A DNA stretch of 64,000 bases from Gammaproteobacteria bacterium (GTDB lineage Bacteria; Pseudomonadota; Gammaproteobacteria; G965277405), in the NCBI GenBank assembly GCA_965277405.1, contig OZ255726.1, positions 1,440,001 to 1,504,000 of the forward strand. The letters run 5' to 3'. How positions within the stretch are numbered: the stretch's first letter is position 1; each line of letters begins with the position of its first letter. The notes below the pieces were generated by a model. That model saw nothing but the letters and a program-made list of their open reading frames with translations, was not told the origin of the DNA and did no database searches. Made by a program: the position numbers and the translations under genes. This document shows, piece by piece, positions 3,654 to 58,403 of this stretch.

Positions 3654-3940
3654 GGAAGCTCTGATTAATTCCATGATGGGCGAGACGGAGAAAAAACGCT
3701 GCTGAAACTTAAGCACAGTGCGCAGATAATACTGGTGGTCTTGTGGGTGTTGCCAAGTGCTGCAACGACGCAGCGCAGCGTTTTTTCCCGTCCTTCTGTT
3801 GAATATATATGATGGTTTGCTGCAATTGCTGTGTTGCATCCCTTGGCGTATATGCTACGGCATGCGCCTGCGGAATGCGCCTTGCAATCATCAGCAATTG
3901 CAGGCAAACTCGCTCCATCAGCGAGTTAATCAGAGGTTCC
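3654..3940. mobile_element. MITE copy 1 (287 bp, IS5-type ends, TTAT target duplication)
   Basis: TIRs GGAAGCTCTGATTAA / TTAATCAGAGGTTCC. TTAT lies on both flanks (3650-3653, 3941-3944). No transposase inside. Multiple copies in the window. Confidence 0.9.
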
Positions 3941-37931: not shown

Positions 37932-38507
37932 GTGTATACGGACAAATCACAACATGGATTTTCAATGATTGAATTACTCATTGTCATCGTGCTAGTTGGA
38001 TTGATGACAACCATTAGCATAACGAGTATTCGTTCATTGCTCAACAATACTGTAAGTGACTCTGAACAGCAAACAATGCTATCAATACTTAAACAAGCCA
38101 GAAATCACGCATTAACTGCAAATGTAACGGTGGTTGTTTGTCCAATCGATATCAATGGAAATTGTATCGCAGCTTGGGAGGAAACATGGATAGTATTTAT
38201 TGATAATAATGCAAATAAAAATATTAGCGCATCAGAGCGGGTTTTGTTGACATACCAGCCAAAAGGTCAAAATATTTTGCTTCGCTTTAGCGGATTTGGC
38301 GCAAGTTCAAGGTATATTCAGTTTATACCACAAGGAAGAATGAAAGCAAATAATGGCACCTTGGTATACTGCCAAGCTGGGGATTTATCATATGCCCGTG
38401 TCATTATCATCAATAGACAAGGGAGAGCACGGGTTGGTGTCGATGCAAATCAAAACGGAATTGTTGAAAACGCCAAGAATATTGATATTGCATGCGGATA
38501 TGACTGA
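37932..38507 (+). CDS. FimT/GspH-like minor pilin
   Basis: Prepilin site GFSMIELLIV, AR..A...NVTVVVCP. Confidence 0.82.
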   Translation: MYTDKSQHGFSMIELLIVIVLVGLMTTISITSIRSLLNNTVSDSEQQTMLSILKQARNHALTANVTVVVCPIDINGNCIAAWEETWIVFIDNNANKNISASERVLLTYQPKGQNILLRFSGFGASSRYIQFIPQGRMKANNGTLVYCQAGDLSYARVIIINRQGRARVGVDANQNGIVENAKNIDIACGYD

Positions 38508-39916: not shown

Positions 39917-40172
39917 TATTGTCTGGATATGGCAGCTATGATGAACACAACGCGGTCTAGCTATTATTTGGGACATTGTAATGGCTAATTTAAGGTAGAA
40001 ATGGGATTGGGTTCAAGTTGCTATTCTTATTTACTCTTGCATAGGGGAAGATGGGAAATGTATTCCTTTTTTTTGTGTAATTTGTTGCCAAGATGATTAG
40101 TAATGTTTGAGGGTAAAACATATAGTATTAACGGATATGATATTTAAGAATTTTTTTATTTCAGGTGGAAAA

Positions 40173-41819
40173 ATGAACAAACAGATATTATTTTTAGCGC
40201 TAGGACTATTAGCTATAGCAGGCTGTAACAGTGATAGTAGCAGCGATAGTGAAACCAACAGTAGTAAAACCAACAGTAACGAAACTAGCAGTAGCGAAAC
40301 ATCTGCATCAGCAATCCCAGACGCACCAAGCAATGTAAGCGCAACAGCAGGTGATAGGGGAGGAGAAATAACCATTAGGTGGAATCCGGTATTTAATGCC
40401 GATTCATACAATCTATATTGGGCAACAACAGCTGGATATGGTAAATCTGCCAGCAAAATATCGCCAGTAACCAGCCCGTACACGCATACAGGGCGTTATA
40501 ATGAATCCACATACTATTACACAATAACCGCTAACAATGCCAGCGGTGAGTCTAGTACCAGTAACGAAGTTGCGGCAGGTCAAAATGATTCTAAGATTAA
40601 AACAATCTATGCAACCGACTTAGCTTTTGCCGCGCTTAAAAACGATGGGACTGTCGTTACTTGGGGGAGAGAGTATTACGGCGGCGATAGTGCAGCGGTG
40701 CAGCATCTACTGAATAACGTTACAGCAATCTATGCAGCCAGTCATGCTTTTGCCGCGCTTAAAAACGATGGGACTGTCGTTACTTGGGGTGCTAGAGGCG
40801 GCGATAGTGCAGCGGTGCAGCATCTACTGAATAACGTTACAGCAATCTATGCAGCCAGTCATGCTTTTGCCGCGCTTAAAAACGATGGGACTGTCGTTAC
40901 TTGGGGTGCTAGCGGCGGCGATAGTGCAGCGGTGCAGCATCTACTGAATAACGTTACAGCAATCTATGCAAACAGGGAAGCTTTTGCCGCGCTTAAAAAC
41001 GATGGGACTGTCGTTACTTGGGGTGATGAGGATTGGGGCGGCGATAGTTCAGCGGTGCAGCATCTACTGACTAACGTTAAAGAAATCTATTCAACTGGCG
41101 CTGCTTTTGCAGCGCTTACCAACGCCAGGACTGTCGTTACTTGGGGGATTGAGGATTACGGCGGTGATAGTGCAGCGGTGCAGCATCTACTGAATAACGT
41201 TACAGTAATCTATGCAACCTATTATGCTTTTGCCGCGCTTAAAAACGATGGGACTGTCGTTACTTGGGGGAGAGAGTATTACGGCGGCGATAGTTCAGGC
41301 GTGGAGGATCAACTGAATAACGTTACAGCAATCTATGCAAACACCCACGCTTTTGCCGCGCTTACAAACGATGGGACTGTCGTTACTTGGGGTGCTATCG
41401 GCGGCGATAGTGCAGCGGTGCAGCAGCAACTGACTAACGTTAAAGAAATCTATGCAAACATCGGGGCTTTTGCCGCGCTTACCAACGCTGGGAGTGTCGT
41501 TACTTGGGGTTCTGGTGGCGGCAGCGATAGTGCAGCGGTGCAGCAGCAACTGACTAACGTTACAGCAATCTATGCAACCGAAAGTGCTTTTGCCGCGCTT
41601 AAAAACGATGGGGGTGTCGTTACTTGGGGTAGTTATAGTGCAGGCGGCGATAGTGCAGCGGTGCAGCAGCTACTGAATAACGTTACAGCAATCTATGCAG
41701 CCAGTCATGCTTTTGCCGCGCTTAAAAACGATGGGACTGTCGTTACTTGGGGTGATCAGTATAACGGTGGCGATAGTTCAGGCGTGCAGCAGCAACTGCT
41801 CTCAGGAAGCGCTGATTAA
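40173..41819 (+). CDS. Array gene 1: lipoprotein with 1 FN3 domain and 10 RCC1-like repeats
   Basis: Lipobox LAIAGC. FN3 (PSNVSA..ITIRW..YNLYW..YYYTITA). Ten VVTWGxxxxGGDS repeats. The C-terminal GSAD* is encoded by the MITE TIR. Confidence 0.85.
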   Translation: MNKQILFLALGLLAIAGCNSDSSSDSETNSSKTNSNETSSSETSASAIPDAPSNVSATAGDRGGEITIRWNPVFNADSYNLYWATTAGYGKSASKISPVTSPYTHTGRYNESTYYYTITANNASGESSTSNEVAAGQNDSKIKTIYATDLAFAALKNDGTVVTWGREYYGGDSAAVQHLLNNVTAIYAASHAFAALKNDGTVVTWGARGGDSAAVQHLLNNVTAIYAASHAFAALKNDGTVVTWGASGGDSAAVQHLLNNVTAIYANREAFAALKNDGTVVTWGDEDWGGDSSAVQHLLTNVKEIYSTGAAFAALTNARTVVTWGIEDYGGDSAAVQHLLNNVTVIYATYYAFAALKNDGTVVTWGREYYGGDSSGVEDQLNNVTAIYANTHAFAALTNDGTVVTWGAIGGDSAAVQQQLTNVKEIYANIGAFAALTNAGSVVTWGSGGGSDSAAVQQQLTNVTAIYATESAFAALKNDGGVVTWGSYSAGGDSAAVQQLLNNVTAIYAASHAFAALKNDGTVVTWGDQYNGGDSSGVQQQLLSGSAD

Positions 41820-42122
41820 CTCGCTTATTGAGCGAGTTTGCTGGCAATTGCTGATGATTGCAAGGCGCAAACCGCTGAGCGCATGACCTAGCTATACGCC
41901 AAGGGGTGCAACACAGCAAGTAGCGCTGCCGCAAACCCAAAGTATATGCAACACAACGACGGGAAACAAGCGCTACTAACGTCGTTGCCGCACTTGGCAA
42001 TACCCGCACGTCCCCACCAGCACAAGCCCCACCAGTGTTAGCTGCGCACTGCGCCTTGCTATCCATCAGCCATTGAGCGTTTTTGCCGCGTTTCGCCCGT
42101 CATGGACTTAATCAGAGGTGCC
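41805..42122. mobile_element. MITE copy 3 (inverted relative to copy 1)
   Basis: GGAAGCGCTGATTAA...TTAATCAGAGGTGCC. Confidence 0.88.
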
Positions 42123-42180
42123 ATATGAGGAAGCGGGGAAATGTATTCCTTTTTTTTGTGTAATTTGTTGCCAAGATGAT

Positions 42181-42209
42181 TTGTATTGTTTGAGGGAAAA
42201 ACATATAGT
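42181..42209 (+). promoter_or_regulatory. Putative sigma70 promoter repeated before each array gene
   Basis: TTGTAT-N17-TATAGT, also at 46413-46441, 49491-49519 and 51358-51386. Gene 1 has TAGTAA-N17-TATAGT at 40098-40126. Confidence 0.5.
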
Positions 42210-42255
42210 TTTAACGGCTATGATATTTAAGAATTTTTTTATTTCGGGTGGGAAA

Positions 42256-45200
42256 ATGAACAAACAGATATTATTTTTAGCGCTAGGACTATTAGCTATA
42301 GCAGGCTGTAACAGTGAAAGTAGCAGCGATAGTGAAACCAACAGTAGTAAAACCAACAGTAGCGAAACATCTGCATTAGCAATCCCAGACGCACCAACCA
42401 ATGTAAGCGCAGCAGCAGGTGATGTGGGAGGAGAAATAACCATTAGTTGGGATAGTGTCAGTGGTGTAGCTGCATATAATTTGTATTGGTCAATAACGGC
42501 TGGATCTGGTAAATCTGCCAGCAAAATATCGCGAGTAACCAGCCCATACACGCATACAGGGCTTGCAAATACAGAGACATACTATTACACGATAACCGCA
42601 AACAATGACGGCGGTGAGTCTAGCTTGAGTAGCGAAGTTGCGGCAACAGCAACTGTATCCAATAACGACGGTGAGTCTAGCTCAAGTAGCGAAACATCTG
42701 CATCAGCAACCCCAGATGCACCAACCAATGTAAGCGCAGTAGTTGGAGTTGGAGAAATAACCATTAGTTGGAATCCAGTATATAATGCCGACACATACAA
42801 TCTATATTGGGCAACAACAGCTGGGTATGGTAAATCTGCCAGCAAAATATCGCGAGTAACCAGCCCCTACACGCATACAGGGCTTGCAAATACAGGGACA
42901 TACTATTACACAATAACCGCAAACAATGACGGCGGTGAGTCTAGCTTGAGTAGCGAGGTTGCGGCAACAGCAACTGTATCCAATAACGACGGTGAGTCTA
43001 GCTCAAGTAGCGAAACATCTGCATCAGCAACCCCAGATGCACCAACCAATGTAAGCGCAGTAGTTGGAGTTGGAGAAATAACCATTAGTTGGAATCCAGT
43101 ATATAATGCCGACACATACAATCTATATTGGGCAACAACAGCTGGGTATGGTAAATCTGCCAGCAAAATATCTGAGGTAACCAGCCCATACCTGCATACT
43201 GGGCTTGTAAATTCAGAGACATACTATTACACAATAACCGCAAACAATGACGGCGGTGAGTCAAGCTTGAGTAGCGAAGTTACGGCAGGTCAAAATTATA
43301 CTAAGATTAAAACAATCTATGCAACCGCCGATGCTTTTGCCGGACTTACCTACGCTGGGGGCGTCGTTACTTGGGGGGGTTATACTAGCGGCGGAAATAG
43401 TTCATACGTGCAGCAACAACTGATTGACGTTAAAACAATCTATGCGACCAAGTACGGGGCTTTTGCAGCGCTGACAACCGCTGGGGGCGTCGTTACTTGG
43501 GGTGATAATCGTTACGGCGGCGATAGTTCAGGCGTGCAGGGTCAACTGAATAACGTTAAAGAAATATATGCAACCCTCGGGGCTTTTGCAGCGCTGACAA
43601 CCGCTGGGGGCGTCGTTACTTGGGGGGGGATTGGTTACGGCGGCGATAGTTCAGCGGTGCAGCCGCAACTGACTGACGTTACAGCAATCTATGCAGCCAA
43701 GTATGCTTTTGCCGCGCTTAAAAACGATGGGACTGTCGTTACTTGGGGTGATGAAGATTACGGCGGCAATAGTTCAGGCGTGCAGCAGCAACTGACTAAC
43801 GTTACAGCAATCTATGCAACCGATAGGGCTTTTGCCGCGCTGACCAACGCTGGGGGCGTCGTTACTTGGGGTGATGAAGATTACGGCGGCGATAGTGCAG
43901 CGGTGCAGCAGCAACTGACTAACGTTACAGCAATCTATGCAACCGATAGGGCTTTTGCCGCGCTGACCAACGCTGCGCGCGTCGTTACTTGGGGTGATGG
44001 GTATGACGGCGGCGATAGTTCAGCCGTGCAGGATCAACTGACTGACGTTAAAGCAATCTATGCAACCGAGGGAGCTTTTGCGGCGCTGACAAATGCTGGG
44101 GGCGTCGTTACTTGGGGGAAAGTGTCTGGTTGGGGGGGGAGCACGTATGACGGCGGCGATAGTTCAGCCGTGCAGGATCAACTGACTGACGTTACAGCAA
44201 TCTATGCAACCAACTGGGCTTTTGCTGCGCTTACCAACGCTAGGAGCGTCGTTACGTGGGGGAGAGAGAATGCTGGCGGCGATAGTTCAGCCGTGCAGGG
44301 TCAACTGACTAACCTTAAAGAAATCTATTCAAACAAGTATGCTTTTGCCGCGCTGACAACCGCTGGGGGCGTCGTTACTTGGGGTCATGAGGATTACGGC
44401 GGGATTAGTGCAGACGAGCAGCAGCAACTGACTAACGTTACAGCAATCTATGCAACCGACGATGCTTTTGCCGCGCTTACCAACGCTGGGCGTGTCGTTA
44501 CTTGGGGGAGATATTTTAATGGCGGCGATAGTTCAGCGGCGCAGCAGCAACTGCTCTCAGGAAGTGCACCAACCAATGTAAGCGCAGCAGCAGGTGATAG
44601 TGGGGGAGAAATAACCATTAGTTGGAATCCGGTATTTAATGCAGATTCATACAATCTATATTGGGCAACAACAGCGGGATATGGTAAATCTGCCAACAAA
44701 ATATCGCCAGTAACCAGCCCGTACACGCATACAGGTCTTGTAAATTCAGAGACATACTATTACACAATAACCGCGAACAATGACGGCGGTGAGTCTAGCT
44801 TAAGTAGCGAAGTTGCGGCAGGTCAAAATTATACTAATATTAAAACAATCTATTCAGCAGGCTCTGCTTTTGCCGCACTTACCAACGCTGGGGGCGTCGT
44901 TACCTGGGGGAATCAGTATTCTGGCGGCAATAGTTCAGGCGTGCAGGATCAACTGACTAACGTTAAAACGGTTTATTCAAACTGGCAGGGTTTTATAGCG
45001 CTTAAAAACGATGATACTGTCGTTACTTGGGGTGATGGGTATTTGCGCGGCAATAGTTCAGGCGTGCAGGATCAACTGACTAACGTTAAAGCAGTCTATG
45101 CAACCTACAACACGATCTCCCCGGCTTATGCCGCGGTTATAAACGATGGGACTGTCGTTACTTGGGGTGATGAGGATGCAGGAGGCGATAGTTCAGACGT

Positions 45201-46095
45201 GCAGGATCAACTGACTAACGTTAAAGAAATCTATTCAACCAGAAGGGCTTTTGCTGCGCTTACAAACGCTGGGGGCGTCGTTACTTGGGGTGATGATGAT
45301 TTCGGCGCCGATAGTTCAGGCGTGCAGGGTCAACTGACTAACATTAAAGCGATCTATTCAACTAATGAACGGGCTTTTGCGGCGCTTACAAACGATGGGG
45401 GCGTCGTTACTTGGGGGAGTGATTTTTGGGGTATTAAGTGGGGCGGCGATAGTTCAGGCGTGCAGCGTCAACTGACTAACGTTAAAGCAATCTATGCAAC
45501 ATACAGGAGTTTTGCTGCGCTCACTAACGATGGGCGCGTCGTTACTTGGGGTGCTGGGGGTGCTGGCGGCGATAGTGCAGGCTTGCAGGATCAACTGACT
45601 GACGTTAAAGAAATCTATACAATCGACTATGCTTTTGCTGCGCTTACCAACGCTGGGGGCGTCGTTACTTGGCCGAGTTTCAATCCAGGCGGCGATAGTT
45701 CAGGCGTGCAGGATCAATTGACTAACGTTAAAGCAATCTATGCAAACGGCGGGGCTTTTGCTGCGCTTACCAACGCTGGGGGCGTCGTTACTTGGGGTCT
45801 TGAGGATTACGCCAGGATTAGTGCAGACGAGCAGCAGCAACTGACTGACGTTACAGCAATCTATGCAACCGACTTTGCTTTTGCCGCGCTTAAAAACGAT
45901 GGGACTGTCGTTACTTGGGGTAATGAGGATTGGGGCGGCGATAGTTCAGGCGTGCAGGATCAACTGACTAACGTTACAGCAATCTATTCAAATTACTCGG
46001 CTTTTGCCGCGCTTACCAACGCTGGGCGTGTCGTTACTTGGGGGAGTGTGGGTGGCGGCGGCGATAGTTCAGCGGTGCAGCATCTACTGCACTAA
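42256..46095 (+). CDS. Array gene 2: lipoprotein with 3 FN3, 10 repeats, FN3, 10 repeats
   Basis: Same signal peptide. A 321-bp internal FN3 duplication. Two blocks of 10 repeats. Confidence 0.85.
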   Translation: MNKQILFLALGLLAIAGCNSESSSDSETNSSKTNSSETSALAIPDAPTNVSAAAGDVGGEITISWDSVSGVAAYNLYWSITAGSGKSASKISRVTSPYTHTGLANTETYYYTITANNDGGESSLSSEVAATATVSNNDGESSSSSETSASATPDAPTNVSAVVGVGEITISWNPVYNADTYNLYWATTAGYGKSASKISRVTSPYTHTGLANTGTYYYTITANNDGGESSLSSEVAATATVSNNDGESSSSSETSASATPDAPTNVSAVVGVGEITISWNPVYNADTYNLYWATTAGYGKSASKISEVTSPYLHTGLVNSETYYYTITANNDGGESSLSSEVTAGQNYTKIKTIYATADAFAGLTYAGGVVTWGGYTSGGNSSYVQQQLIDVKTIYATKYGAFAALTTAGGVVTWGDNRYGGDSSGVQGQLNNVKEIYATLGAFAALTTAGGVVTWGGIGYGGDSSAVQPQLTDVTAIYAAKYAFAALKNDGTVVTWGDEDYGGNSSGVQQQLTNVTAIYATDRAFAALTNAGGVVTWGDEDYGGDSAAVQQQLTNVTAIYATDRAFAALTNAARVVTWGDGYDGGDSSAVQDQLTDVKAIYATEGAFAALTNAGGVVTWGKVSGWGGSTYDGGDSSAVQDQLTDVTAIYATNWAFAALTNARSVVTWGRENAGGDSSAVQGQLTNLKEIYSNKYAFAALTTAGGVVTWGHEDYGGISADEQQQLTNVTAIYATDDAFAALTNAGRVVTWGRYFNGGDSSAAQQQLLSGSAPTNVSAAAGDSGGEITISWNPVFNADSYNLYWATTAGYGKSANKISPVTSPYTHTGLVNSETYYYTITANNDGGESSLSSEVAAGQNYTNIKTIYSAGSAFAALTNAGGVVTWGNQYSGGNSSGVQDQLTNVKTVYSNWQGFIALKNDDTVVTWGDGYLRGNSSGVQDQLTNVKAVYATYNTISPAYAAVINDGTVVTWGDEDAGGDSSDVQDQLTNVKEIYSTRRAFAALTNAGGVVTWGDDDFGADSSGVQGQLTNIKAIYSTNERAFAALTNDGGVVTWGSDFWGIKWGGDSSGVQRQLTNVKAIYATYRSFAALTNDGRVVTWGAGGAGGDSAGLQDQLTDVKEIYTIDYAFAALTNAGGVVTWPSFNPGGDSSGVQDQLTNVKAIYANGGAFAALTNAGGVVTWGLEDYARISADEQQQLTDVTAIYATDFAFAALKNDGTVVTWGNEDWGGDSSGVQDQLTNVTAIYSNYSAFAALTNAGRVVTWGSVGGGGDSSAVQHLLH

Positions 46096-46355
46096 GGAAG
46101 CTCTGAAAACCGCTGGTGCAGGCGTAGCATATACGCCAACGCATGCAACTCAGCAAGTACCGCTGCCGCAAACCAGCATATATTCAACACAACAACGGGA
46201 AAAAAGCGGAACTAACGGCGTTGCAGCACTTGGCAATACCCGCGTCCCCACCAGCACAAGCCCCACCAGTGTTAGCTGCGCACTGCGCCTTGCTATCCAT
46301 CAGCCATCAGCGTTGTTGCTCCGTCTCGCCCATCATGGACTTAATCAGAGCTTCC
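46096..46355. mobile_element. MITE copy 4 (internally deleted)
   Basis: GGAAGCTCTGA...TTAATCAGAGCTTCC. Starts immediately after the gene 2 TAA. Confidence 0.85.
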
Positions 46356-46489
46356 ATAGGGGAAGAAGGAAAATGTATTCTTTTTTTTTGTGTAATTTGC
46401 TGCAAAGATGATTTGTATCGTTTGAGGGTAAAACATATAGTTTTAACAGCTATGATATTTAACAATTTTTTTATTTAGGGTGGAAAAAA

Positions 46490-49120
46490 ATGAACAAACA
46501 GATATTATTTTTAACACTAGCACTATTAGCTATAGCAGGGTGTAACGCTGAAAGTAGCAGCGATAGCGAAACCAACAGTAGTAAAACCAACAGTAGTAAA
46601 ACCAACAGTAGTAAAACCAACAGTAGTAAAACCAACAGTAGTAAAACCAACAGTAACGAAACTAGCAGTAACGAAACTAGCAGTAGCGAAACATCTGCAT
46701 CAGCAATCCCAGACGCACCAAGCAATGTAAGCGCAGCAGCTGGAGTTGGAGAAATAACCATTAGTTGGAATCCGGTATTTAATGCCGATTCATACAATCT
46801 ATATTGGGCAACAACCGCTGGGTATGGTAAATCTGCCAGCAAAATATCGCGAGTAACCAGCCCGTACACGCATACAGGGCGTTATGATGAATACACATAC
46901 TATTACACAATAACCGCAAACAATGGCGACGGTGAGTCTAGCTCGAGTAACGAAGTTGCGGCAACACCAACTGTATCCAATGACGGCTTTGAGTCTAGTT
47001 CCAGTAGCGAAGTTGCAGCAGGTCAAAATGATACTAAGATTCAAACATTCTATACAACCGACGGGGCTGCTGCCGTGCTTACAAACGCTGGGGGTGTCGT
47101 TACTTGGGGTGATGAGGATTACGGTGGCGATAGTTCAGGCGTGCAGCAGCAACTGACTAACGTTACAGCCATCTATGCAACCAACGGGGCTTTTGCCGTG
47201 CTTACAAACGCTGGGCGAGTCGTTACTTGGGGTGATGAGAATAACGGCGGTGATAGTGCAGCGGTGCAGCAGCAACTGACTAACGTTACAGCCATCTATG
47301 CAACCAACGGGGCTTTTGCGGCGCTTACAAGCGCTGGGACTGTCGTTACTTGGGGTGATCAGCATAGCGGCGGCGATAGTTCAGGCGTGCAGGGTCAACT
47401 GACTAACGTTACAGCAATCTATGCAACCGATGGGGCTTTTGCCGTGCTTACAAACGCTGGGGGCGTCGTTACTTGGGGGAGTGAGGAGGACGGCGGCGAT
47501 AGTGCAGCGGTGCAGCAGCTACTGAATAACGTTACAGCAATCTATGCAACCGATAGGGCTTTTGCCGCGCTGACCAACGCTGGGGGCGTCGTTACTTGGG
47601 GTGATGAAGATTACGGCGGCGATAGTTCAGCGGTGCAGCAGCAACTGACTAACGTTACAGCAATCTATTCAACCAGCTATGCTTTTGCCGCGCTTAAAAA
47701 CGATCGGAGTGTCGTTACTTGGGGTGATGTGGATTGGGGCGGCGATAGTTCAGCTGTGCAGCAGCAACTGACTAACGTTAAAGAAATCTATGCAACTGAA
47801 TGGGGTTTTGCGGCGCGTACAACCTTTGGGGGCGTCGTTACTTGGGGTGTTGATATTTACAGTGGCGGCGATAGTTCAGCGGTACAGCAGCAACTGACTA
47901 ACGTTAAAGAAATCTATGCAACCTTATTTGCTTTTGCCGCGCTGACAAACGCTGGGAGTGTCGTTACTTGGGGCCCCAATTTTGGCGGCGGCGATATTTC
48001 AGCGGTGCAGCTGCAACTGACAAACGTTAAAGAAATCTATGCAACTGGCTTAGCTTTTGCCGCGCTGACAAACGCTGGGGGTGTCGTTACTTGGGGGAGT
48101 GAGGATCACGGCGGCGATAGTTCAGGCGTGCAGCTGCAACTGACTAACGTTAAAGAAATCTATGCAACCACCTCTGCTTTTGCCGCACTTACCAACGATG
48201 GGACTGTCGTTACTTGGGGGAGTGAGGATGAAGGCGGCGATAGTTCAGCGGTGCAGCTGCAACTGACTAACGTTAAAGAAATCTATGCAACCTCCTCTGC
48301 TTTTGCCGCGCTTACAAACGCTGGGACTGTCGTTACTTGGGGGCGTAGCGGTGGCGATAGTTCAGCGGTGCAGCAGCAACTGACTAACGTTAAAGCAATC
48401 TATGCAACCAGCTATGCTTTTGCCGCGCTTAAAAACGATCGGAGTGTCGTTACTTGGGGTGATAATCGTTACGGCGGCGATAGTTCAGGCGTGCAGCATC
48501 TACTGACTAACGTTACAGCAATCTATGCAACCGACGATGCTTTTGCCGCGCTTACCGACGCTGGGGGCGTCGTTACTTGGGGTAATAATCGTTACGGCGG
48601 CGATAGTGCAGCGGTGCAGCAGCAACTGACTGACGTTAAAGCAATCTATTCAAACGACAGTGCTTTTGCCGCGCTTACAAACGCTGGGGGCGTCGTTACT
48701 TGGGGGGATAGTTATTTAGGCGGCGATAGTTCAGGCGTGCAGCATCTACTGACTAACGTTAAAGAAATCTATTCAACTTTCTTTGCTTTTGCCGCACTTA
48801 CCAACGCTGGGGGCGTCGTTACTTGGGGGAGTGATGATTTGGGCGGCGGCGATAGTTCAGCGGTGCAGCAACAACTGACTAACGTTAAAGAAATCTATTC
48901 AACTTTCTTTGCTTTTGCCGCACTTACCAACGCTGGAGGCGTCGTTACTTGGGGGAACAATTTTAGCGGCGGCGATAGTTCAGCGGTGCAGCAACAACTG
49001 ACTAACGTTAAAGAAATCTATTCAACTTTATTTGCTTTTGCCGCACTTACCAACGCTGGGGGCGTCGTTACTTGGGGGAGTGATTGGAGAGGAGGCGATA
49101 GTTCACCGGTGCAGTTTTAA
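46490..49120 (+). CDS. Array gene 3: lipoprotein with (TNSSK)n linker, FN3 and 17 repeats
   Basis: Lipobox LAIAGC and 17 VVTWG repeats. Confidence 0.85.
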   Translation: MNKQILFLTLALLAIAGCNAESSSDSETNSSKTNSSKTNSSKTNSSKTNSSKTNSNETSSNETSSSETSASAIPDAPSNVSAAAGVGEITISWNPVFNADSYNLYWATTAGYGKSASKISRVTSPYTHTGRYDEYTYYYTITANNGDGESSSSNEVAATPTVSNDGFESSSSSEVAAGQNDTKIQTFYTTDGAAAVLTNAGGVVTWGDEDYGGDSSGVQQQLTNVTAIYATNGAFAVLTNAGRVVTWGDENNGGDSAAVQQQLTNVTAIYATNGAFAALTSAGTVVTWGDQHSGGDSSGVQGQLTNVTAIYATDGAFAVLTNAGGVVTWGSEEDGGDSAAVQQLLNNVTAIYATDRAFAALTNAGGVVTWGDEDYGGDSSAVQQQLTNVTAIYSTSYAFAALKNDRSVVTWGDVDWGGDSSAVQQQLTNVKEIYATEWGFAARTTFGGVVTWGVDIYSGGDSSAVQQQLTNVKEIYATLFAFAALTNAGSVVTWGPNFGGGDISAVQLQLTNVKEIYATGLAFAALTNAGGVVTWGSEDHGGDSSGVQLQLTNVKEIYATTSAFAALTNDGTVVTWGSEDEGGDSSAVQLQLTNVKEIYATSSAFAALTNAGTVVTWGRSGGDSSAVQQQLTNVKAIYATSYAFAALKNDRSVVTWGDNRYGGDSSGVQHLLTNVTAIYATDDAFAALTDAGGVVTWGNNRYGGDSAAVQQQLTDVKAIYSNDSAFAALTNAGGVVTWGDSYLGGDSSGVQHLLTNVKEIYSTFFAFAALTNAGGVVTWGSDDLGGGDSSAVQQQLTNVKEIYSTFFAFAALTNAGGVVTWGNNFSGGDSSAVQQQLTNVKEIYSTLFAFAALTNAGGVVTWGSDWRGGDSSPVQF
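46571..46655 (+). repeat. 15-bp coding VNTR (ACCAACAGTAGTAAA) x5 plus a partial copy
   Basis: Read directly. Encodes TNSSK. Only one full unit in genes 1, 2 and 5. Confidence 0.9.
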
Positions 49121-49129
49121 CAGCACCCA

Positions 49130-49433
49130 GGAAGCGCTGATTAAGTCGCTGAGTGAGCGAGTTAGCCAGCAATTGCTGATGACTGCAAGGCGCATTCCGC
49201 AGGCGCATGCCGTAGCATATACGCCAAGGGATGCAACACAGCAAGTAGCGCTGCCGCAAACCCAAAGTATATGCAACACAACGACGGGAAACAAGCGCTA
49301 CTAACGTCGTTGCAGCACTTGGGCAATACCCGCACGTCCCCACCAGTGTTAGCTGCGCACTGCGCCTTGCTATCCATCAGCCATCGAGCGTTTTTGCCGC
49401 GTTTCGCCCGTCATGGACTTAATCAGAGGTGCC
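49130..49433. mobile_element. MITE copy 5
   Basis: GGAAGCGCTGATTAA...TTAATCAGAGGTGCC. Confidence 0.88.
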
Positions 49434-49565
49434 ATATGAGGAAGCGGGGAAATGTATTCCTTTTTTTGTGTAATTTGCTGCAAAGATGATTTGTATAGTT
49501 TGAGTGAAAAACATATAGTTTTAACAGATATGATATTTAACAATATTTTTATTTCTGGTGGGAAA

Positions 49566-51003
49566 ATGAACAAACAGATATTATTTTTAACGCTCGGACT
49601 ATTAGCTATAGTAGGCTGTAACAGCGATAGTTCAGCGGTGCAGCAGCAATTGACTAACGTTACAGCAATCTATGCAACCAACGGGGCTTTTGCCGCGCTT
49701 ACAGATGGTTAGCGGCGGCGATAGTGCAGAGGTGCGGCAGCAACTGACTAACGTTAAAACAATCTATGCAAACGAGTATGCTTTTGCCGCACTTACCAAC
49801 GCTGGAGGCGTCGTTACTTGGGGGTCTGAGGAATTCGGCGGCGAAAGTTCAAGGGTGCAGCAGCAACTGACTAACGTTACAGCAATCTATGCAACCAACC
49901 ATACTTTTGCCGCGCTTAAAAACGATGGGACTGTCGTTACTTGGGGTAATGAGGGTGGGGATGGCGATAGTGCAGAGGTGCAGCAGCAACTGACTAACGT
50001 TACAGCAATCTATGCAGCCGAGTATGTTTTTGCCGCACTTACCAACGCTGGTGGCGTAGTTACTTGGGGGAGTGAGGATTTCGGCGGCGATAGTTCAATG
50101 GTGCAGCAGCAACTGACTAACGTTACAGCAATCTATGCAACCAACGGGGCTTTTGCCGCGCTTACAACCGCTGGGGGCGTCGTGACTTGGGGGAGATGGG
50201 ATGACGGCGGCAATAGTTCAGGCGTGCAGCAGCAACTGACTAACGTTAAAGAAATCTATGCAACCAAGTACGGGGCTTTTGCCGCGCTTACCAACGCTGG
50301 ACGTGTCGTTGCTTGGGGGAGTCAGGATTTCGGCGGCGATAGTGCAGAGGTGCAGCAGCAACTGACTAACGTTAAAGAAATCTATGCAAACAAGTATGCT
50401 TTTGCGGCGCTTAAAAACGATGGGACTGTCGTTACTTGGGGGAGTGAGGATTATGGCGGTAATAGTTCAGTCGTGCAGCAGCAACTGACTAACGTTACAG
50501 CAATCTATGCAACCGACTATGCTTTTGCAGCGATTACCAACGCTGGGGGCGTCGTTACTTGGGGGAGTGAGGATGCCGGCGGCGATAGTTCAGACGTGCA
50601 GCAGCAACTGACTAACGTTAAAGAAATCTATGCAACCGGCGAGGCTTTTGCGGCGATTACCAACGCTGGGGGCGTCGTTACTTGGGGTAATGATGATTAC
50701 GGCAGCGATAGTTCAGGCGTGCAGCAGCAACTGGCTAACGTTAAAGCAATCTATTCAACCGTCAGGGCTTTTGCGGCGCTTACCAATGCTGGGGGCGTCG
50801 TTACTTGGGGTAACGCTGGGGGCGTCGTTACTTGGGGTAATGATGATTACGGCAGCGATAGTGCAGCGGTGCAGCAGCAACTGGCTAACGTTACAGCAAT
50901 CTATGCAACCGACAGGGCTTTTGCCGCGCTTAAAAACGATGGGACTGTCGTTACTTGGGGTGATGTGGATTACGGCGGCGATAGTTCATATTACTTGGGG
51001 TGA
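49566..51003 (+). pseudogene. Array gene 4: FN3 deleted, frameshifted near 49705, about 11 repeats
   Basis: The signal peptide GCNSDS runs directly into a repeat. The signal-peptide frame stops at 49712 and the repeats continue in another frame. A 40-bp tandem duplication (50951-51030) is at the 3' end. Confidence 0.78.
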
Positions 51004-51034
51004 TGTGGATTACGGCGGCGATAGTTCATATTGG

Positions 51035-51300
51035 TGATTGCAAGGCGCAAACCGCTGAGCGCATGACCTAGCTATACGCCAACGCATGCAACTCAGCAAG
51101 TACCGCTGCCGCAAACCAGCATATATTCAACACAACAACGGGAATAAAGCGGAACTAACGGCGTTGCAGCACTTGGCAATACCCGCACGTCCCCACCAGC
51201 ACAAGCCCCACCAGTGTTAGCTGCGCACTGCGCCTTGCTATCCATCAGCCATCAGCGTTGTTGCTCCGTCTCGCCCATCATGGACTTAATCAGAGCTTCC
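51035..51300. mobile_element. MITE copy 6 (left end truncated, chimeric)
   Basis: Right TIR TTAATCAGAGCTTCC. The 5' part resembles copy 3 and the 3' part resembles copy 4. Confidence 0.82.
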
Positions 51301-51434
51301 ATAGGGGAAGAAGGAAAATGTATTCCTTTTTTTTGTGTAATTTGCTGCAAAGATGATTTGTATCGTTTGAGTGAAAAACATATAGTTTTAACAGCTATGA
51401 TATTTAACAATTTTTTTATTTAGGGTGGAAAAAA

Positions 51435-53676
51435 ATGAACAAACAGATATTATTTTTAACACTAGCACTATTAGCTATAGCAGGGTGTAACGCTGAAAGT
51501 AGCAGCGATAGCGAAACCAACAGTAGTAAAACCAACAGTAGCGAAACATCTGCATCAGCAATCCCAGACGCACCAAGCAATGTAAGCGCAGCAGCAGGTG
51601 ATGGGGGAGGAGAAATAACCATTAGTTGGAATCCAGTATATAATGCCGATTCATACAATCTATATTGGGCAACAACAGCTGGATATGGTAAATCTGCCAG
51701 CAAAATATCGCGAGTAACCAGCCCGTACACGCATACAGGGCGTTATAATGAATCCACATACTATTACACGATAACCGCAAACAATGCCAGCGGTGAGTCT
51801 AGTACCAGTAACGAAGTTGCGGTAGGTAAAAATGCTACTAAGATTAAAACAATCTATGCAACCAACGGGGCTTTTGCCGCGCTTACAACCGCTGGGGCGT
51901 CGTTACTTGGGGTGATGAGGATGACGGCGGCGATAGTTCAGGCGTGCAGCAGCAACTGACTAACGTTAAAGAAATCTATGCAACCAAGGACGGGGCTTTT
52001 GCCGCGCTTACCAACGCTGGGACTGTCGTTACTTGGGGGATGAGTATTACGGTGGCGATAGTTCAGCGGTGCAGCAGCAACTGACTAACGTTGCAGCAAT
52101 CTATACAACCGACAGGGCTTTTGCCGCGCTGACAACCGCTGGGGGCGTCGTTACTTGGGGGGGCAGTTGGCCTGGCGGCGATAGTGCAGGCGTGCAGCAG
52201 CAACTGACTAACGTTACAGCAATCTATGCAACCTCCACTGCTTTTGCCGCGCTGACCAACGCTGGGGGCGTAGTTACTTGGGGGAATGAGAATTACGGCG
52301 GCGATAGTTCAGGCGTGGAGGATCAACTGAATAACGTTACAGCAATCTATGCAAACACCCACGCTTTTGCCGCGCTTACCAACGCCAGGACTGTCGTTAC
52401 TTGGGGGTATGAGGGTTGGGGTGGCGATAGTACAGGCGTGCAGCTTTTACTGACTGATGTTAAAGAAATCTATTATGCAACCGACTGGGCTTTTGCCGCG
52501 CTGACCAACGCTGGGACTGTCGTTACTTGGGGGCATGAGTATTACGGTGGCGATAGTTCAGCGGTGCAGCATTTACTGACTGACGTTAAAGAAATCTATG
52601 CAACCCGCTATGCTGTTGCCGCGCTGACCAACGCTGGGGGTGTCGTTACTTGGGGGATTGAGGATGACGGCGTCGATAGTTCAGCGGTGCAGCAGCAACT
52701 GACTGACGTTACTGCAATCTATGCAACCAACAGGGCTTTTGCCGCGATGAAAAACGATGGGACTTTCGTTACTTGGGGGTATGAGGATTGGGGCGGCGAT
52801 AGTTCAGGCGTGCAGCATTTACTGACTGACGTTACAGCAATCTATGCAACCGGCTATGCTTTTGCAGCGTTTACCAACGCTGGGGGCGTCGTTACTTGGG
52901 GTGATGAGGATTCGGGCGGCGATAGTTCAGGCGTGCAGCATCTACTGAATAACGTTCAAGCAATCTATGCAACCGACTGGGCTTTTGCCGCGCTGACCAA
53001 CGCTGGGGGCGTCGTTACTTGGGGACATGAGAATAGAGGCGGCGATAGTTCAGGCGTGCAGCATTTACTGACTAACGTTGCAGTAATCTATTCAACCAAG
53101 TGGGGGGGTGCTGCTGCGCTTACCAACGCCGGGGACGTTGTTACTTGGGGGTCATGGGATTACGGCGGCGATAGTTCAGGCGTGCAGCAGCAACTGACTA
53201 ACGTTAAAGAAATCTATGCAACCGACTGGGCTTTTGCCGCGCTGACCAACGCTGGGACTGTCGTTACTTGGGGTGGGAGCGGTGGCGATAGTACAGGCGT
53301 GCAGCAGCAACTGACTAACGTTACAGCAATCTATTCAACCGACTGGGCTTTTGCCGCGCTGACCAACGCTGGGACTGTCGTTACTTGGGGTGGGAGCGGC
53401 GGCGATAGTTCAGCGGTGCAGCAGCAACTGACTGACGTTAAAGAAATCTATTCAACCGACTGGGCTTTTGCCGCGCTGACCAACGCTGGGACTGTCGTTA
53501 CTTGGGGTGGGAGCGGCGGCGATAGTGCAGCGGTGCAGCATCAACTGACTAACGTTACAGCAATCTATTCAACCTACCGGGCTTTTGCTGCGCTTAAAAA
53601 CGATGGGACTGTCGTTACTTGGGGTGATGAGGATGACGGCGGCGATAGTGCAGCGGTGCAGCATCTACTGCACTAA
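51435..53676 (+). pseudogene. Array gene 5: lipoprotein with FN3 and 15 repeats, two -1 frameshifts in G runs
   Basis: G4 at 51894-51897 where paralogs have G5. G5 at 52035-52039 is one base short of TGG GGN GAT. Confidence 0.8.
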
Positions 53677-53677
53677 G

Positions 53678-54706
53678 TGTCAAAACTACACACGTTGTTT
53701 ACAAAAACCAACAATTCTAGCAGCTGGTGGTAGCTTCCCTAAAGCGGAATGTGTGCGACTGAGGTTATAGTGATTAAGATATTTTGGAAGAGCTTTGTTG
53801 TGCTCATCACTTGTTTGCTATGGCTGCGAAAATGCCCATTCCTTGCTAAGCGTTTGTATCAACCTTGCTGCTTTTCCGTTGGTCTGCGGTCTGTATGGTT
53901 TGGTAAAAACGTGCTTGATTTGACAAGCATCAAGATATCGATTGACGAACTTTGATCGATATGCAGGTCCGTTGTCTGTCATCAGCCGTTGCACCGCTAT
54001 TCCCAAAGATGAAAAATGCTCCAATGCTCGGTGTATAAACCCCTGAGTCGTTGCCTTTTTCACATCAGGAAGCACCTCCACAAACGCCCATCGACTATGG
54101 TCATCTATACAAACATGGGCGCACTCAATACCATGGCCTGTATTTGCTGTTGCAGGAGCACCAAATTTATGCCCAGTGGAGTAAAACGTTGCAGTTTGTT
54201 GATGTCCAGATGCAGCATGTCGCCTGGATGCTCATATCGATGCGCTTTTTCTCTTTTTAAGGTCTTTTTTGTCAGGCACAACCGTCTCAAAATTTTGGTG
54301 ACAGTGGCGTATGCCAATTGCAAATAGCTGGCAATGCTCCGTGCATTCATTTGTGACTCTAAATAGAGTTTTTGGATGCGTTGTGCCAAGGTCTCAGCGA
54401 GCTTAGCTGGGCTTGAAATTGGCCTGCTGGAAAGATTGTACAGTGCAGATGTTCCACCTGATGTATAGCGTCTGAGCCACTTGTAAACAGTTAGTAGCGA
54501 ATAGTAGCGAAATGGCAAAATCGTTGGCTACGCGATTCACAGGGTGCTTGTCGACAAGTACCCTGTGAACCATAACTTCTCGACTATGAAACGTTGTTTT
54601 GGCACAATGATGTGGGTTGTTCATGCTGTACTCCTTTGTTTAGTAACTATATAGAGTACCAGCTGCTTAGTTAGCTGATGTGTGAACAACCTCCGTAGCA
54701 TTTACA
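53678..54706 (-). mobile_element. IS481-family element, 1029 bp, transposase frameshifted
   Basis: Imperfect TGT-started IRs (TGTCAAAACTACACACGTTGTTTACA / TGTAAATGCTACGGAGGTTGTTCACA). Fragments TVYKWLRRY, YEHPGDMLHLDI, RLMTDNG, KPYRPQTNGKA occur in several frames. Flanks ACTAAG/ACTAGG. Confidence 0.88.
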
Positions 54707-54860
54707 ACTAGGAACTTACGAATCCACCTTAGTCTGTGGCTATCTCAAAAATAGCTTCATCTATTTCAATGGTGTCCCCAACCTCTTTCAGCCATTTTGT
54801 GAGAGTAGCTTCGGCAACACTCTCACCCATTTGCGGTAATTTTAGCTCAAATTTTGACAT
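54707..54860 (-). pseudogene. N-terminal lipoyl-domain fragment of a 2-oxoacid dehydrogenase E2 (Bacteroidota-like), disrupted
   Basis: My translation: MSKFELKLPQMGESVAEATLTKWLKEVGDTIEIDEAIFEIATD, then +1 nt, then KVDS*VPS. Cut by IS481. Confidence 0.8.
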
Positions 54861-54956
54861 ATTGTTATTTTATATGCTATTTATGGATAGTATTTTACAA
54901 AATTACTAAAAAAGAGTGTTTTATTAAATTAATAAAACATTTAATCTATTCGGGTT

Positions 54957-57900
54957 TTAACTAAATAATTCTTCAATACTTTCTTTAGATAATGATTTTA
55001 CAAAACTTTCTTCTGTTTGTATAATATCATCAGATAGTTGTTTTTTATTGGACTGATGCTGAACAATCTTTTCTTCTATAGTTCCTTTACATATCATTTT
55101 ATACGCCATTACATGTTTGCTCTGACCTATTCTATAACACCTATCTATTGCTTGAGCCTCTACTGCGGGGTTCCACCAAGGATCTACCAAATACACATAG
55201 TCAGCCGCAGTGAGGTTAAGCCCAGTTCCTCCTGCTTTAAGACTGATTAGAAATACTCTTATGTTTTCATCTTCCTGAAAGCTCTCTACTCTTTCTTGTC
55301 TGTTTTTAGTTTTACCATCTAAATATTCATACTTAATATTTTCCTTGTCTAGTTCATCTTTAATCAACCTTAGCATTTTTACAAATTGAGAAAAGATCAA
55401 TATTTTATGATTTCCTGTTTTTTCTGTAATATGCTGTATGAGTTCTTTTATTTTAATCGATTCCCCAGTATATTTTTCATCTTCCTTAAGCAGTTGTGGA
55501 GAGTCGCATATTTGTCGCAATTTTGTTAATCCTTCTAGCACATACATTTTTGATTTTCCCAATCCTGTCTCATCTATTTTATTCAGTAAATAATCACGGT
55601 ATTTATTTCTATAGGCATCATATAATTGTTGCTGTTCTGTATCCATAGTACAAAATAGTATCTGCTCTGTTTTTTCTGGCAATTCTGTTGCCACCTGTTC
55701 TTTAGTTCGTCTTAATAAAAAAGGATTGATCAGTTCTTTTAGTTCTTTTGCAACCTCTGTATCTCTATTTTTATCTATTGGAGTTGAAAATTCTTTTTTA
55801 AAATTCGCCATACTTCCTAAAAGACCGGGGTTTACAAAGGTCATTTGCGAATATAGATCAAACGTATTGTTTTCTATAGGGGTACCTGTAAGCACTATTT
55901 TATTTTTTGATTGTAATAATCGCACTGCTTTAAACCGTTGTGAGTTTGGGTTTTTTATGGCTTGTGATTCATCTAGAACTATATAATCAAAATTGTATTC
56001 TTTTAGATAATCTATATCTCTCATTACAATACCATAAGTAGTTAATACCAAATCGGTTTTCTTAAATATATCTGTATCTTTTTTCCTATCACCTCCTATA
56101 AGGGCAAATATTTTAAGTGTTGGGCAGAATTTTTTAATTTCTTCCTGCCAATTAAAGATTAAGGATGTTGGTACCACTATTAAATGTGCATTAGTGGTCT
56201 TTTTTTTATCTTTTAGATATTTAAAAAAAGTGATGATCTGTAATGTTTTCCCCAATCCCATATCATCTGCCAAACAGCCTCCAAAATTATACTCATCTAA
56301 AAAGTTAAGCCAATTAAGACCTTCTTTTTGGTAATCTCTCAATTTTGCCTTTACCCTACGGGGCTCCGTTATTTTATCAATTTCTTTAAAAGACTGCAAT
56401 TTCTTTTTCATCTCTCTATGATTTTTTATCATATCAGAGTCCTGATCTAGTTCATCATATAAACTGTCTATTGCCGAAAGCTGGTATTTAGAAATTGTTA
56501 TGCTATCTTTTTTTACGTCTCCTGTTCTGAACAGATGTTTGTATTTTTCTATCCACTCTTTAGGGAGTATTCCTATTGTTCCATCTTTTAATTCTATATA
56601 GTTGCTTTTATTAACAATAGATTTACTGACGTCTTTTAGGCTTACGGTTAGGTCTCCAAAAGCAATTTGTATATTAACATCGAACCAATCTGTTTCAGAA
56701 TTTACATTTACAGATATATTTGCCTTATTTCTATTGTATTTTATATTGGATAGGGTATCAAAACCAAATATTTCTATATCATTTTCTTTTAATACTTCAA
56801 AAGCATCTATAAACCAAGCTCCTTTAATAAAATCTTCCATAAAAAGATAGAAAAATGATTGATCTTGATTATAGAAATCCTGGTGCAGTGTTCTTATTGT
56901 ATCAAGAAACTCTTTTTCGTAATCAGCATCCCTTTTTACCCTAAATAATGTGCCATTTTTTATTTCTTCTGGCATTTTTTTACTTAAAACCCCTATATGT
57001 TGTTCGTTGTATTCCAAAACAGGTTTAAACAGTATAAAACCGTCGTGTTCTGACAAATACAATTGCTTTTTAAACTCGTTTATCTCGGGTGTTTTAGTTT
57101 TGTATTTTAGGTGTGTTGTTTCTATTTCATATTTTTCGCAAAGCGGTTTGATAAATTTTGAATAATAGGCATCAAAGCCCTCTTTTGGGATTCGTATTTC
57201 GGGGTTTGAATCAAAAAATATTAACGTCTTAGCATAATTGATAGATTTGTTAAGGTAATATGTATCCTTATCTTCCACAAAAAGAAAATTCCCGCCAATT
57301 TCCTTTTTGGACAATAAGCTCTTTTTTTCGTTTATAGTTATATAAGCTTTTAAAATATGGTGATGGACTTCTTCTACAATTTTAAATGAAAGTTCTGTGC
57401 TTTTTATAGATAGCTTAATCGGTGTTAATTGCCTTTTTGTAATTTGTTTACTATGCTCATAATAATTCATTTTATATATGAACTGGTTTTCTAATTTTGG
57501 CATTAGTTCTTTTAGTACTGTATGCTCATATTTTTCTATAACGAATTCATCCTCATTCCTTAAATCATAAAGTGAATGTTCGGATAATTTTAATGCACAG
57601 CTTAAAAGATTTATTTCTTCTTCTTTTAGGGAATATTTTTTTAGTATTAGGTCTTCTGCTTCTATTTCTTCTATTTTAGAAATCAAAGCTGCTCCATCCT
57701 TGTTTAAGTTTCCTCTTAAGGGGATTAAGATTACAGGGGGCGAATGATTTTGATATTCATGAAATATAAATCCTATGGCAATTCCTTTTGCTTTGGTTTT
57801 CTTTTCTAGCACAGGAGCGTATGGCAATTCATATTTTTTTACTTCTTCATCAGATACCAAAGTGTTAAGCATTATATTAAGCCCATCCTTTTCGTCTAAC

Positions 57901-58361: not shown

Positions 58362-58403
58362 CTGTTTATAATTAATCACCTTGATGTTTAACCTATACAA
58401 CAA

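Follow-up and report, generated by a model that had tools for sequence, protein, structure and literature searches.

The stretch analysed here, hereafter the window, is the 64,000-nucleotide segment at positions 1440001-1504000 of a gammaproteobacterial genome (GCA_965277405.1, contig OZ255726.1), assembled as a single contig of 2.17 Mb and 98%-complete. Between 40173 and 53676 of the window lies an array of five co-oriented genes, called A to E (Table 1, where the first coordinate of each gene is that of its ATG), of which only A, B and C are intact. They encode tandem repeats of about 41 residues placed behind a lipoprotein-type leader. Searching for the anchor GTCGTTACTTGGGG with up to three mismatches gave 73 matches between 40653 and 53611, all on the + strand, 64 of them exact and most of them spaced by 123 bp. 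They are distributed as 10 in gene A, 10+10 in B, 17 in C, 11 in D (one of which is the product of a 27-bp duplication) and 15 in E, in agreement with the counts (10, 10+10, 17, about 11 and 15) that a first-pass annotation had read from the letters. Sixty-five units are complete and in frame in the window; 46 of them measure 41 aa and the others 39-48 aa, and these length differences fall within two loops.

The leaders follow the pattern MNKQILFL(A/T)L(G/A)LLAI(A/V)GC|N, i.e. a signal peptide and a lipobox with Cys at +1, MNKQILFLALGLLAIAGC|N; a signal peptide and a lipobox (LAIAGC|N) are thus read from the sequence at the start of each gene, in support of the lipoproteins previously proposed. 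In A, B, C and E a Ser/Thr-rich linker built of 15-bp repeats follows, with one copy in A, B and E and about six in C (5.8 copies, 46569-46655). Pfam detects fn3 in four stretches of gene B, up to 74.9 bits, and, beyond the lipoprotein leader, FN3 and repeats, it detects no NTPase of the STAND (signal transduction ATPase with numerous domains) or NLR (NOD-like receptor) type in the window genes. The NCBIfam scan assigned no family and Rfam matched nothing in the window. The 5' regions (40060-40172, 42140-42255, 46380-46489, 49455-49565 and 51325-51434) carry a T tract varying from T7 to T9, and the A tract that separates the ribosome-binding site from the ATG is A5 or A7 among the family genes; such differences could set unequal expression levels. 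Promoter-like and terminator-like sites are rarer in the window than in shuffled sequences.

The most salient feature of the repeats is the concentration of their variation. Over the 46 units of 41 aa, the six columns of highest entropy are columns 6-9 (2.25-2.88 bits), the four residues after VVTWG that we call loop 1, and columns 30-31 (3.27-3.28 bits), the two residues in IYAT-xx-AFAAL that we call loop 2; these are exactly the two places where the first-pass annotation located the variability. Making up 15% of the columns (6/41), they account for 44% of the total entropy, and the chance that six random columns form two runs at most is P = 0.0007, i.e. variability is clustered and not even along the repeat. 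Columns 15, 18 and 41 show moderate variability (1.5-2.0 bits). All the variants quoted earlier were found, both for loop 1 (REYY, DEDW, DNRY, KVSGWGGSTYD, SDFWGIKW, RWDD, GSWP) and for loop 2 (YY, EW, KYG, NW, RR, FF). As for the composition of the loops, the announced richness is real for D (4.0x), Y (4.5x), E (2.9x) and W (3.1x) but does not extend to G and R (1.1-1.2x).

The framework had been described as almost invariant even at many silent sites, and its nucleotide identity is 0.866 overall and 0.855 at third codon positions, against 0.475 for the loops. Pairs of units with 1-2 framework differences per 105 nt differ at about 8-9.5 of the 18 loop nucleotides: loop divergence is uncoupled from framework divergence. 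The four codons of loop 1 display variabilities at positions 1/2/3 of.51/.52/.21,.38/.31/.24,.49/.28/.04 and.46/.42/.34, and loop changes originate from all four bases at similar rates. Since positions 1 and 2 exceed position 3, and since each of the four bases is a source of changes, we attribute the pattern to selection on the loops and not to a mutational hotspot.

The repeats are not confined to the array. A second locus (genome 544320-550709), 936 kb distant, holds one lipoprotein gene with the leader and 5' region of the array; it encodes 2,129 aa from the leader ATG, in an open frame of 2,171 codons, and is arranged as three runs of repeats (10, 10 and about 11), separated by two and then by five FN3 domains, with an F5/8 type C (discoidin) domain at the C-terminus (E 1.6e-12). 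The genome thus totals 104 blades, 73 in the window and about 31 at the second locus. A third locus (genome 787000-790500) contains a collapsed copy of the family (FN3 and the last repeat, with stop codons) and, on the - strand, an array-type leader and S/T-rich linker placed ahead of an unrelated cargo without Pfam match (frames L017:2349-2717 and 1431-2333).

Mean unit identity is 0.73-0.84 within arrays and 0.74-0.82 between arrays, second locus included, and the nearest neighbour of a unit often sits in a different gene, including across both loci. All four gametes are observed at 223 of the 253 pairs of dimorphic framework sites, and r2 drops from 0.17 to 0.03 past 15 nt. These sequence patterns show that blades are exchanged within and between genes and with the second locus, by patches shorter than about 15 nt. 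Loop variants form a graded network, with a loop-1 nearest neighbour 0-3 nt away for 65 of 71 units. Pairs of units sharing loop 1 (n=46) have a loop 2 identity of 0.59 compared with 0.50 across all pairs, which indicates that the loops reassort independently of each other. The idea of repeat shuffling formerly put forward is thus supported as far as loops are reassorted between blades; at the opposite, no dedicated machine comparable with those of variable lymphocyte receptors (VLRs) or transcription activator-like effectors (TALEs) is indicated. No recombinase or other dedicated factor adjoins the array, which is flanked by housekeeping genes upstream, and by a transposase fragment and a lone SNF2 helicase downstream.

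The array also bears the marks of a rapid turnover. Each intergenic spacer is made of a miniature inverted-repeat transposable element (MITE) of about 300 bp, present in more than 100 copies in the genome, then about 130 bp of common 5' region. The MITE copies of the array are 85-97% alike mutually but at most 84% alike to copies elsewhere, which shows that they were duplicated along with the gene. The IS5-type MITE end (GGAAGC.CTGATTAA) is found at or just past the 3' ends (41805-41819, 46093-46110, 49130-49145): gene A takes from it its last four residues (GSAD) and its stop, and gene B stops at the MITE target site, as gene E probably does, judging from identical C-terminal residues. The family genes thus look truncated by one old MITE insertion, later copied with the gene. 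Gene B, as its internal junction shows, where 8 nt of the MITE end are joined to the next FN3 start, is an in-frame fusion of two neighbouring 10-repeat genes; its 10+10 arrangement was produced by deletion of the intervening MITE, promoter, leader and linker. Gene D has lost its linker and FN3, a 94-bp tandem duplication (49624-49796) shifts its frame, a 27-bp duplication (50788-50840) is in frame and a 40-bp duplication (50951-51032) terminates the frame. In gene E two 1-bp deletions occurred at G runs, at 51894-51898 (G4, not G5) and at 52035-52040.

Table 1. Features of the array and of its downstream edge (positions in the window).
Feature	Coordinates	Strand	Description
gene A	40173..41819	+	leader, S/T-rich linker, one FN3-like domain, 10 RCC1-type 41-aa repeats; 548 aa
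MITE copy	41805..42125	.	~300 bp; its end GGAAGCGCTGATTAA is the source of the gene A stop codon
conserved 5' region before gene B	42126..42255	+	common to six family genes; T7-T9 and A5/A7 tracts before the ATG
gene B	42256..46095	+	leader, linker, 3 FN3, 10 repeats, 1 FN3, 10 repeats; 1279 aa
fusion scar in gene B	44560..44567	+	first 8 nt of the MITE end (GGAAGTGC) joined to the next gene's FN3 start
MITE copy	46096..46360	.	abuts the gene B stop codon (CTAA|GGAAGCTCTGA)
gene C	46490..49120	+	leader, linker, FN3-like domain, 17 repeats; 876 aa
MITE copy	49130..49436	.	3' of gene C
gene D, broken	49566..51032	+	leader joined directly to repeat; 11 anchors
MITE copy	51032..51303	.	3' of gene D
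gene E, broken	51435..53676	+	leader, linker, FN3, 15 anchors; three frames
dispersed repeat unlike the MITE	53677..54100	.	8 genome matches including its own copy; array boundary
transposase HTH (helix-turn-helix) fragment	54105-54518	-	adjoins the dispersed repeat at the array edge

In the vicinity of the array, a low-GC island (0.30-0.36) at 54105-58403 comprises the transposase HTH fragment and the lone helicase, a protein of 1148 aa with SNF2-family and bacterial SNF2-associated domains (Pfam) that matches the DpdE and ZorD models of PADLOC; no DpdE or ZorD partner genes were found near it. Two genes upstream of the array stands a lone gene for a GspH/FimT-type minor pseudopilin (37932-38507).

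Concerning the family of the repeats, RCC1_2 (PF13540) matches A, B, C, the open reading frame of D and the second fragment of E with 73.4-137.6 bits for a cut-off of 22, the 174-aa N-terminal fragment of E having no repeat match in Pfam. The score for WD40_RLD (PF25390, cut-off 150 bits) is above the cut-off for B (181.3) and C (176.5), whereas A, D and E stay below it (127.1, 147.5 and 109.4). When a profile is made of the organism's five 10-repeat domains, it matches the RCC1-like domain (RLD) of HERC2 (3kci, E 7.4e-7; 7q40, E 2.4e-6); in this alignment the WG and AL motifs are matched, the stretch following WG corresponds to loop 1, and loop 2 immediately precedes the H..AL strand. The RCC1 type first proposed for the repeats is confirmed by both RCC1_2 and HERC2. 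With gene A alone, phmmer found nothing among PDB sequences.

Relatives are very numerous: phmmer against 1.84 billion representatives returned 27,332 proteins at E <= 1e-3, of which 3,633 reach E <= 1e-30, and a word-based homologue search gave at least 3,225 matches. Among the matches listed are 'Ig-like domain-containing' proteins of Aeromonas, 'RCC1 domain-containing' proteins of Photobacterium and Bdellovibrio, DUF4347 proteins of Synechococcus and Desulfobulbus, and many proteins of Symbiodinium, for which passages of an earlier study describe an expanded RCC1 family with 52 of the 86 analysed members grouping with prokaryotes (PMC4083563). Runs of anchors among 239 homologues peak at 10, with 76 such runs and 2 of 11. 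The 57 homologues with six or more units of 41 aa have their entropy maxima at columns 6-9 (1.3-2.0 bits) and 30-31 (2.1-2.2 bits), and in seven Aeromonas relatives, taken as putative orthologues because they have an N-terminal region in common, identity is 0.70 at the N-terminus, 0.78 in the framework and 0.165 in loop 1. A lipobox-like leader is present in 56 of the 223 homologues that start with M.

A Psychromonas sp. lipoprotein (L021:2998-5432) has about 19 family repeats and is split by a frameshift at 3894-3897. On the megaplasmid of Shewanella oneidensis MR-1 (NC_004349.1, 90085-104757), three tandem genes end in a 41-aa repeat domain; they are the 'tandem-95 repeat proteins' SO_RS22640, SO_RS22645 and SO_RS22660, two of them annotated with an identical protein accession. 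The MR-1 record contains 12 matching places, one query match lying at the C-terminal end of the first gene. An OmpA family gene adjoins these tandem-95 genes, and MR-1 is itself a tractable model organism.

The uncharacterised homologues of Aeromonas, Photobacterium, Bdellovibrio, MR-1 and Psychromonas are thus like the array in their 41-aa repeat, their runs of 10 and their two variable loops, often also in their lipobox leaders, in the tandem paralogues of MR-1 and in the frameshifted copy of Psychromonas; they differ by an identity of about 60% at most and by Ig-like or tandem-95 stalks in place of FN3. The first-pass annotation recognised no described bacterial system in the array, a claim of singularity that does not hold, the framework and both variable loops recurring in the 57 homologues and the seven Aeromonas relatives. 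The number of representatives also speaks against a special system, as do the repetitive RCC1/BLIP-II propellers catalogued in passages of PMC9218822. Because scaffold, loops, leaders, tandem paralogues and broken copies occur elsewhere, these features are not particular to this genome. What appears distinctive here is the uniformity of the DNA and the blade load, not the pattern itself: at eight other measurable loci framework identity is 0.55-0.81 and third-position identity 0.39-0.69 (66 of the 74 homologue loci had too few strict units for this measurement), compared with 0.866 and 0.855 in the array.

Several other searches gave little. Among 40 genomes of the same class no relative was closer than class level, and only the FN3 part matched two of them; neither metagenome contigs nor genome contigs contained the framework DNA pattern; the phage collection yielded just three weak matches (about 26% identity), and PADLOC gave gene A a chance-level match only. 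The window protein is not in the ESM Atlas, where the neighbours of one homologue (P0043) are merely RCC1_2 families, and the literature searched contained no functional study of the 41-aa 10-repeat subfamily.

The stretch is also present, as contigs only, in three sequencing runs of one study (word shares 0.50, 0.48 and 0.21). Inside the repeats these contigs are fragmented to pieces of about 150-260 bp. The unique contigs of samples X1 and X2 are identical, and every apparent variant that was traced corresponds to a paralogue: the insertion at 52034 and the G>C at 52039 together reproduce the paralogous unit located at 52519, and the change of X3 at 41220-41240 is the second-locus unit at genome position 549901. 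None of the contigs listed repairs the frameshifts. Being fragmented and with paralogous variants, the run contigs give no usable evidence on population variation or on frameshift errors.

How the two loops might be disposed in space was considered with an AlphaFold2 (AF2) model of the 10-repeat domain, built from a 5-sequence alignment (pLDDT 67.3, pTM 0.57). DSSP assigns to it, with moderate confidence, three strands and a short helix per repeat, in the order strand VTAIYA, loop-2 turn, strand FAALK, NDG turn, strand VVTW, loop 1 and short helix. As the first turn of an antiparallel meander lies on the side where its third strand leaves, we infer that both loops would lie at the same end of the sheet of each blade. 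RCC1-like closed rings have seven blades of about 50-60 aa; here the repeats have 41 aa and the canonical number is 10, for a model too poor to judge ring closure. In UVR8 the dimer residues presumably correspond, going by the motif, to the two loops. Passages of PMC5091643 place UVR8 R286, R234, R338, D96 and D107 on the dimer surface. In BLIP-II, the interface residues form two series with offsets of about +20-23 and +17-19, according to passages of PMC10817188; the spacing of the array, +23 from loop 1 to loop 2 and +18 from loop 2 to the next loop 1, fits this arrangement.

Altogether, we consider as probable that the array encodes a fast-evolving, envelope-anchored binding surface, kept by ordinary recombination and selection. 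The genes would be paralogous envelope-anchored lipoproteins in which the S/T-rich tether and the FN3 stalk hold an RCC1/BLIP-II-type domain, canonically a run of 10 blades of 41 aa, each with three strands and a short helix. The two loops of each blade (about four residues after VVTWG, two in the IYAT-xx-AFAAL hairpin) would face one side and jointly form an acidic, tyrosine- and tryptophan-rich surface binding an external ligand, the likeliest candidates being glycans or proteins of a host, a prey or a particle. The extracellular context is argued from the lipobox leader, the FN3 domains, the F5/8 type C domain of the paralogue and the leaders of homologues. The near-identical 123-bp units, of which six genes and two loci together contain more than 100, would recombine by the ordinary homologous route, and this would be the source of diversity: unequal crossing-over, together with gene conversion over short patches, would homogenise the framework and reassort the loops, while selection for amino-acid change would act on the loop codons. 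A fast turnover would accompany this process, with drift of the repeat number from 10 to 17, fusions, MITE truncation and decay of copies.

We nevertheless have to mention the observations that weigh against such a reading. A binding role is most likely, but binding and surface exposure are properties that we infer. As the AF2 model is poor, ring closure, blade number and a common face are argued from topology and analogy: the 10-repeat model matches no solved fold (Foldseek, E <= 0.001), the best Foldseek matches being C-terminal domains of GyrA (TM about 0.1) and the best VIA Z being 2.6, and a single-sequence model of 17 repeats has implausible strands of about 26 residues, taken as an artefact. 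BLIP-II is absent from the PDB sequence matches up to E 10, as it is from the fold matches of this poor model, and UVR8 was likewise never found. The values of piN/piS (nonsynonymous over synonymous diversity), 0.47/0.38 for the loops and 0.138/0.167 (ratio 0.83) for the framework, are not a clean test of selection here. Two of the five window genes (D and E) are broken. As for the gene ends, those of A, B and E lie at or within the end of a MITE, C stops shortly ahead of one, and a MITE follows D. The discoidin domain of the second-locus paralogue is absent from all window genes. Lastly, C with 17 repeats and E with 15 depart from the canonical 10, so that some copies may not fold or function.

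The same exchanges could be those of a contingency or antigenic-variation locus, where the intact genes are expressed and D, E and the 788-kb remnant serve as donor cassettes, as with pilE/pilS, vlsE or msp2. Short-patch mosaicism and inter-locus exchange, the independent reassortment of loops, the retention of broken copies beside intact ones and the variable homopolymer tracts of the 5' regions (T7-T9, A5/A7) would all suit such a locus. However, every copy, broken ones included, keeps its own conserved 5' region and leader, and since all six genes do so there is no single expression site with promoterless cassettes. The lack of an adjoining recombinase or dedicated factor also speaks against it, as do the identical X1 and X2 contigs and the paralogous origin of the traced variants, though weakly, these contigs being unable to show rare variants. 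We thus find this scenario unlikely. We are similarly doubtful of a wider version, in which the two loci would form a receptor-diversification system with the broken copies as a loop reservoir converted by short patches into the expressed genes. If it were true, lineages of one clone would show different binding faces, with antigenic or host-range variation, and the hypervariable 10-repeat propeller would be a widespread, unrecognised class of adaptive surface binder.

A location on the other side of the envelope would instead make the array a repertoire of periplasmic inhibitors or immunity proteins. By default, lipoproteins of proteobacteria end up on the outer membrane, facing the periplasm, which goes in this direction. 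Besides, blades of this type recall those of BLIP-II, which is secreted, binds enzymes with high affinity and, in the passages of PMC10817188, has an interface rich in W/Y/F/N/D/E. On the other hand, outward-facing adhesins typically have features such as the long S/T-rich tether and FN3 stalks seen here and the discoidin domain seen in the paralogue; relatives, by their source names among the matches listed, are joined to Ig-like, DUF4347 and, in one case, flagellin-like parts; and BLIP-II gives no sequence match. These points render the periplasmic repertoire improbable.

Alternatively, the repeats might be amplified, decaying and functionless, the framework being homogenised neutrally and heterology blocking conversion at the loops. 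The two broken genes out of five, the MITE at or just past the end of every gene, the non-canonical repeat numbers of C and E and the framework piN/piS of 0.83 can be invoked here, and passages of PMC9218822 indicate that many highly repetitive propellers are disrupted soon after their origin. We hold this decay to be quite unlikely, first because loop-1 codon positions 1 and 2 vary far above position 3, which neutral divergence does not predict, and also because open frames as long as 1279 aa (B) and 2171 aa (second locus) have been retained and because distant homologues and the Aeromonas relatives keep the framework while the same two loops vary.

The chances of a targeted hypermutation of the loops, by a diversity-generating retroelement or a similar enzyme, are virtually nil in spite of the tight focus on 6 of 41 codons: no RVT_1 (reverse transcriptase) match exists in the 98%-complete genome although control genomes were positive, changes come from all four bases and not from adenine alone, loops vary in length, and there are more than 100 target units but no template repeat. 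The absence of both an RVT_1 match and an adenine bias excludes a retroelement mechanism within the limits of the tools, and leaves the diversity-generating retroelement as such near refuted.

Returning to an envelope-anchored binding surface shaped by recombination and selection, its interest goes beyond this array. The 41-aa 10-repeat RCC1/BLIP-II-type domain is among the commoner extracellular modules without an assigned function; it occurs in Aeromonas, Vibrio and Shewanella and is strongly expanded in Symbiodinium. The present genome offers an unusually clean view of its evolution, with 104 blades, a near-uniform scaffold, two selected loops and exchange between loci. If the binding role is true, antibody-like binders would have a natural scaffold in this domain, which in aquatic bacteria would also mark the recognition of hosts or particles.

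Among the systems to which the array can be compared, lamprey VLRs and TALEs share with it a binding surface made of repeat modules, with a fixed scaffold and few variable residues. VLRs are assembled somatically, by a cytidine-deaminase-linked copy-choice from flanking cassettes, and each TALE repeat uses two residues to read DNA. Nothing indicates a comparable machinery or target for the array, where shuffling is evolutionary and not shown as programmed.

The blades of BLIP-II, from Streptomyces exfoliatus, are not known to be near-identical. According to passages of PMC10817188, BLIP-II is close to the array by the size (about 40 aa) and make-up (three strands, one helix) of its blades, by its nature of exported binder, and by an interface formed from turns and loops of successive blades with two contact positions per blade about 20 residues apart; it differs by its seven blades, compared with runs of 10, by being a soluble secreted single domain, and by the lack of a detectable sequence match. 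In the catalogue of Pereira and Lupas (2022, PMC9218822), RCC1/BLIPII propellers make up 10% of the highly repetitive set and are mostly bacterial. Its passages report, as in the array, near-identical blades derived from one blade, blade numbers above or below the lineage norm and a frequent disruption by frameshifts or stop codons; a 41-aa 10-repeat lipoprotein subfamily, two hypervariable loops and inter-locus exchange are not described in these passages.

The best parallel for the mode of evolution is provided by the HNWD genes of Podospora anserina (het-d, het-e), whose WD40 repeats have a high internal conservation (Paoletti, Saupe and Clave 2007, PMC1805685). According to this study, HNWD is, like the array, a multi-gene propeller family with concerted evolution within and between loci, variable repeat numbers, pseudogenes and a few residues per repeat under diversifying selection. 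HNWD carries its WD40 blades in cytoplasmic fungal NTPase proteins of the NLR type, where repeat-induced point mutation (RIP) may add mutations, whereas the array carries RCC1/BLIP-II blades in bacterial lipoproteins with FN3 stalks and no NTPase. The missing NTPase lowers the idea that the array encodes an HNWD/WRAP protein, not the idea that it evolves like one. As for the WD repeats of het-d and het-e, the evolution of the array matches concerted evolution combined with diversifying selection; the array is thus most likely another member of this known evolutionary pattern rather than a new diversification system, and at present it extends the pattern to one further protein family.

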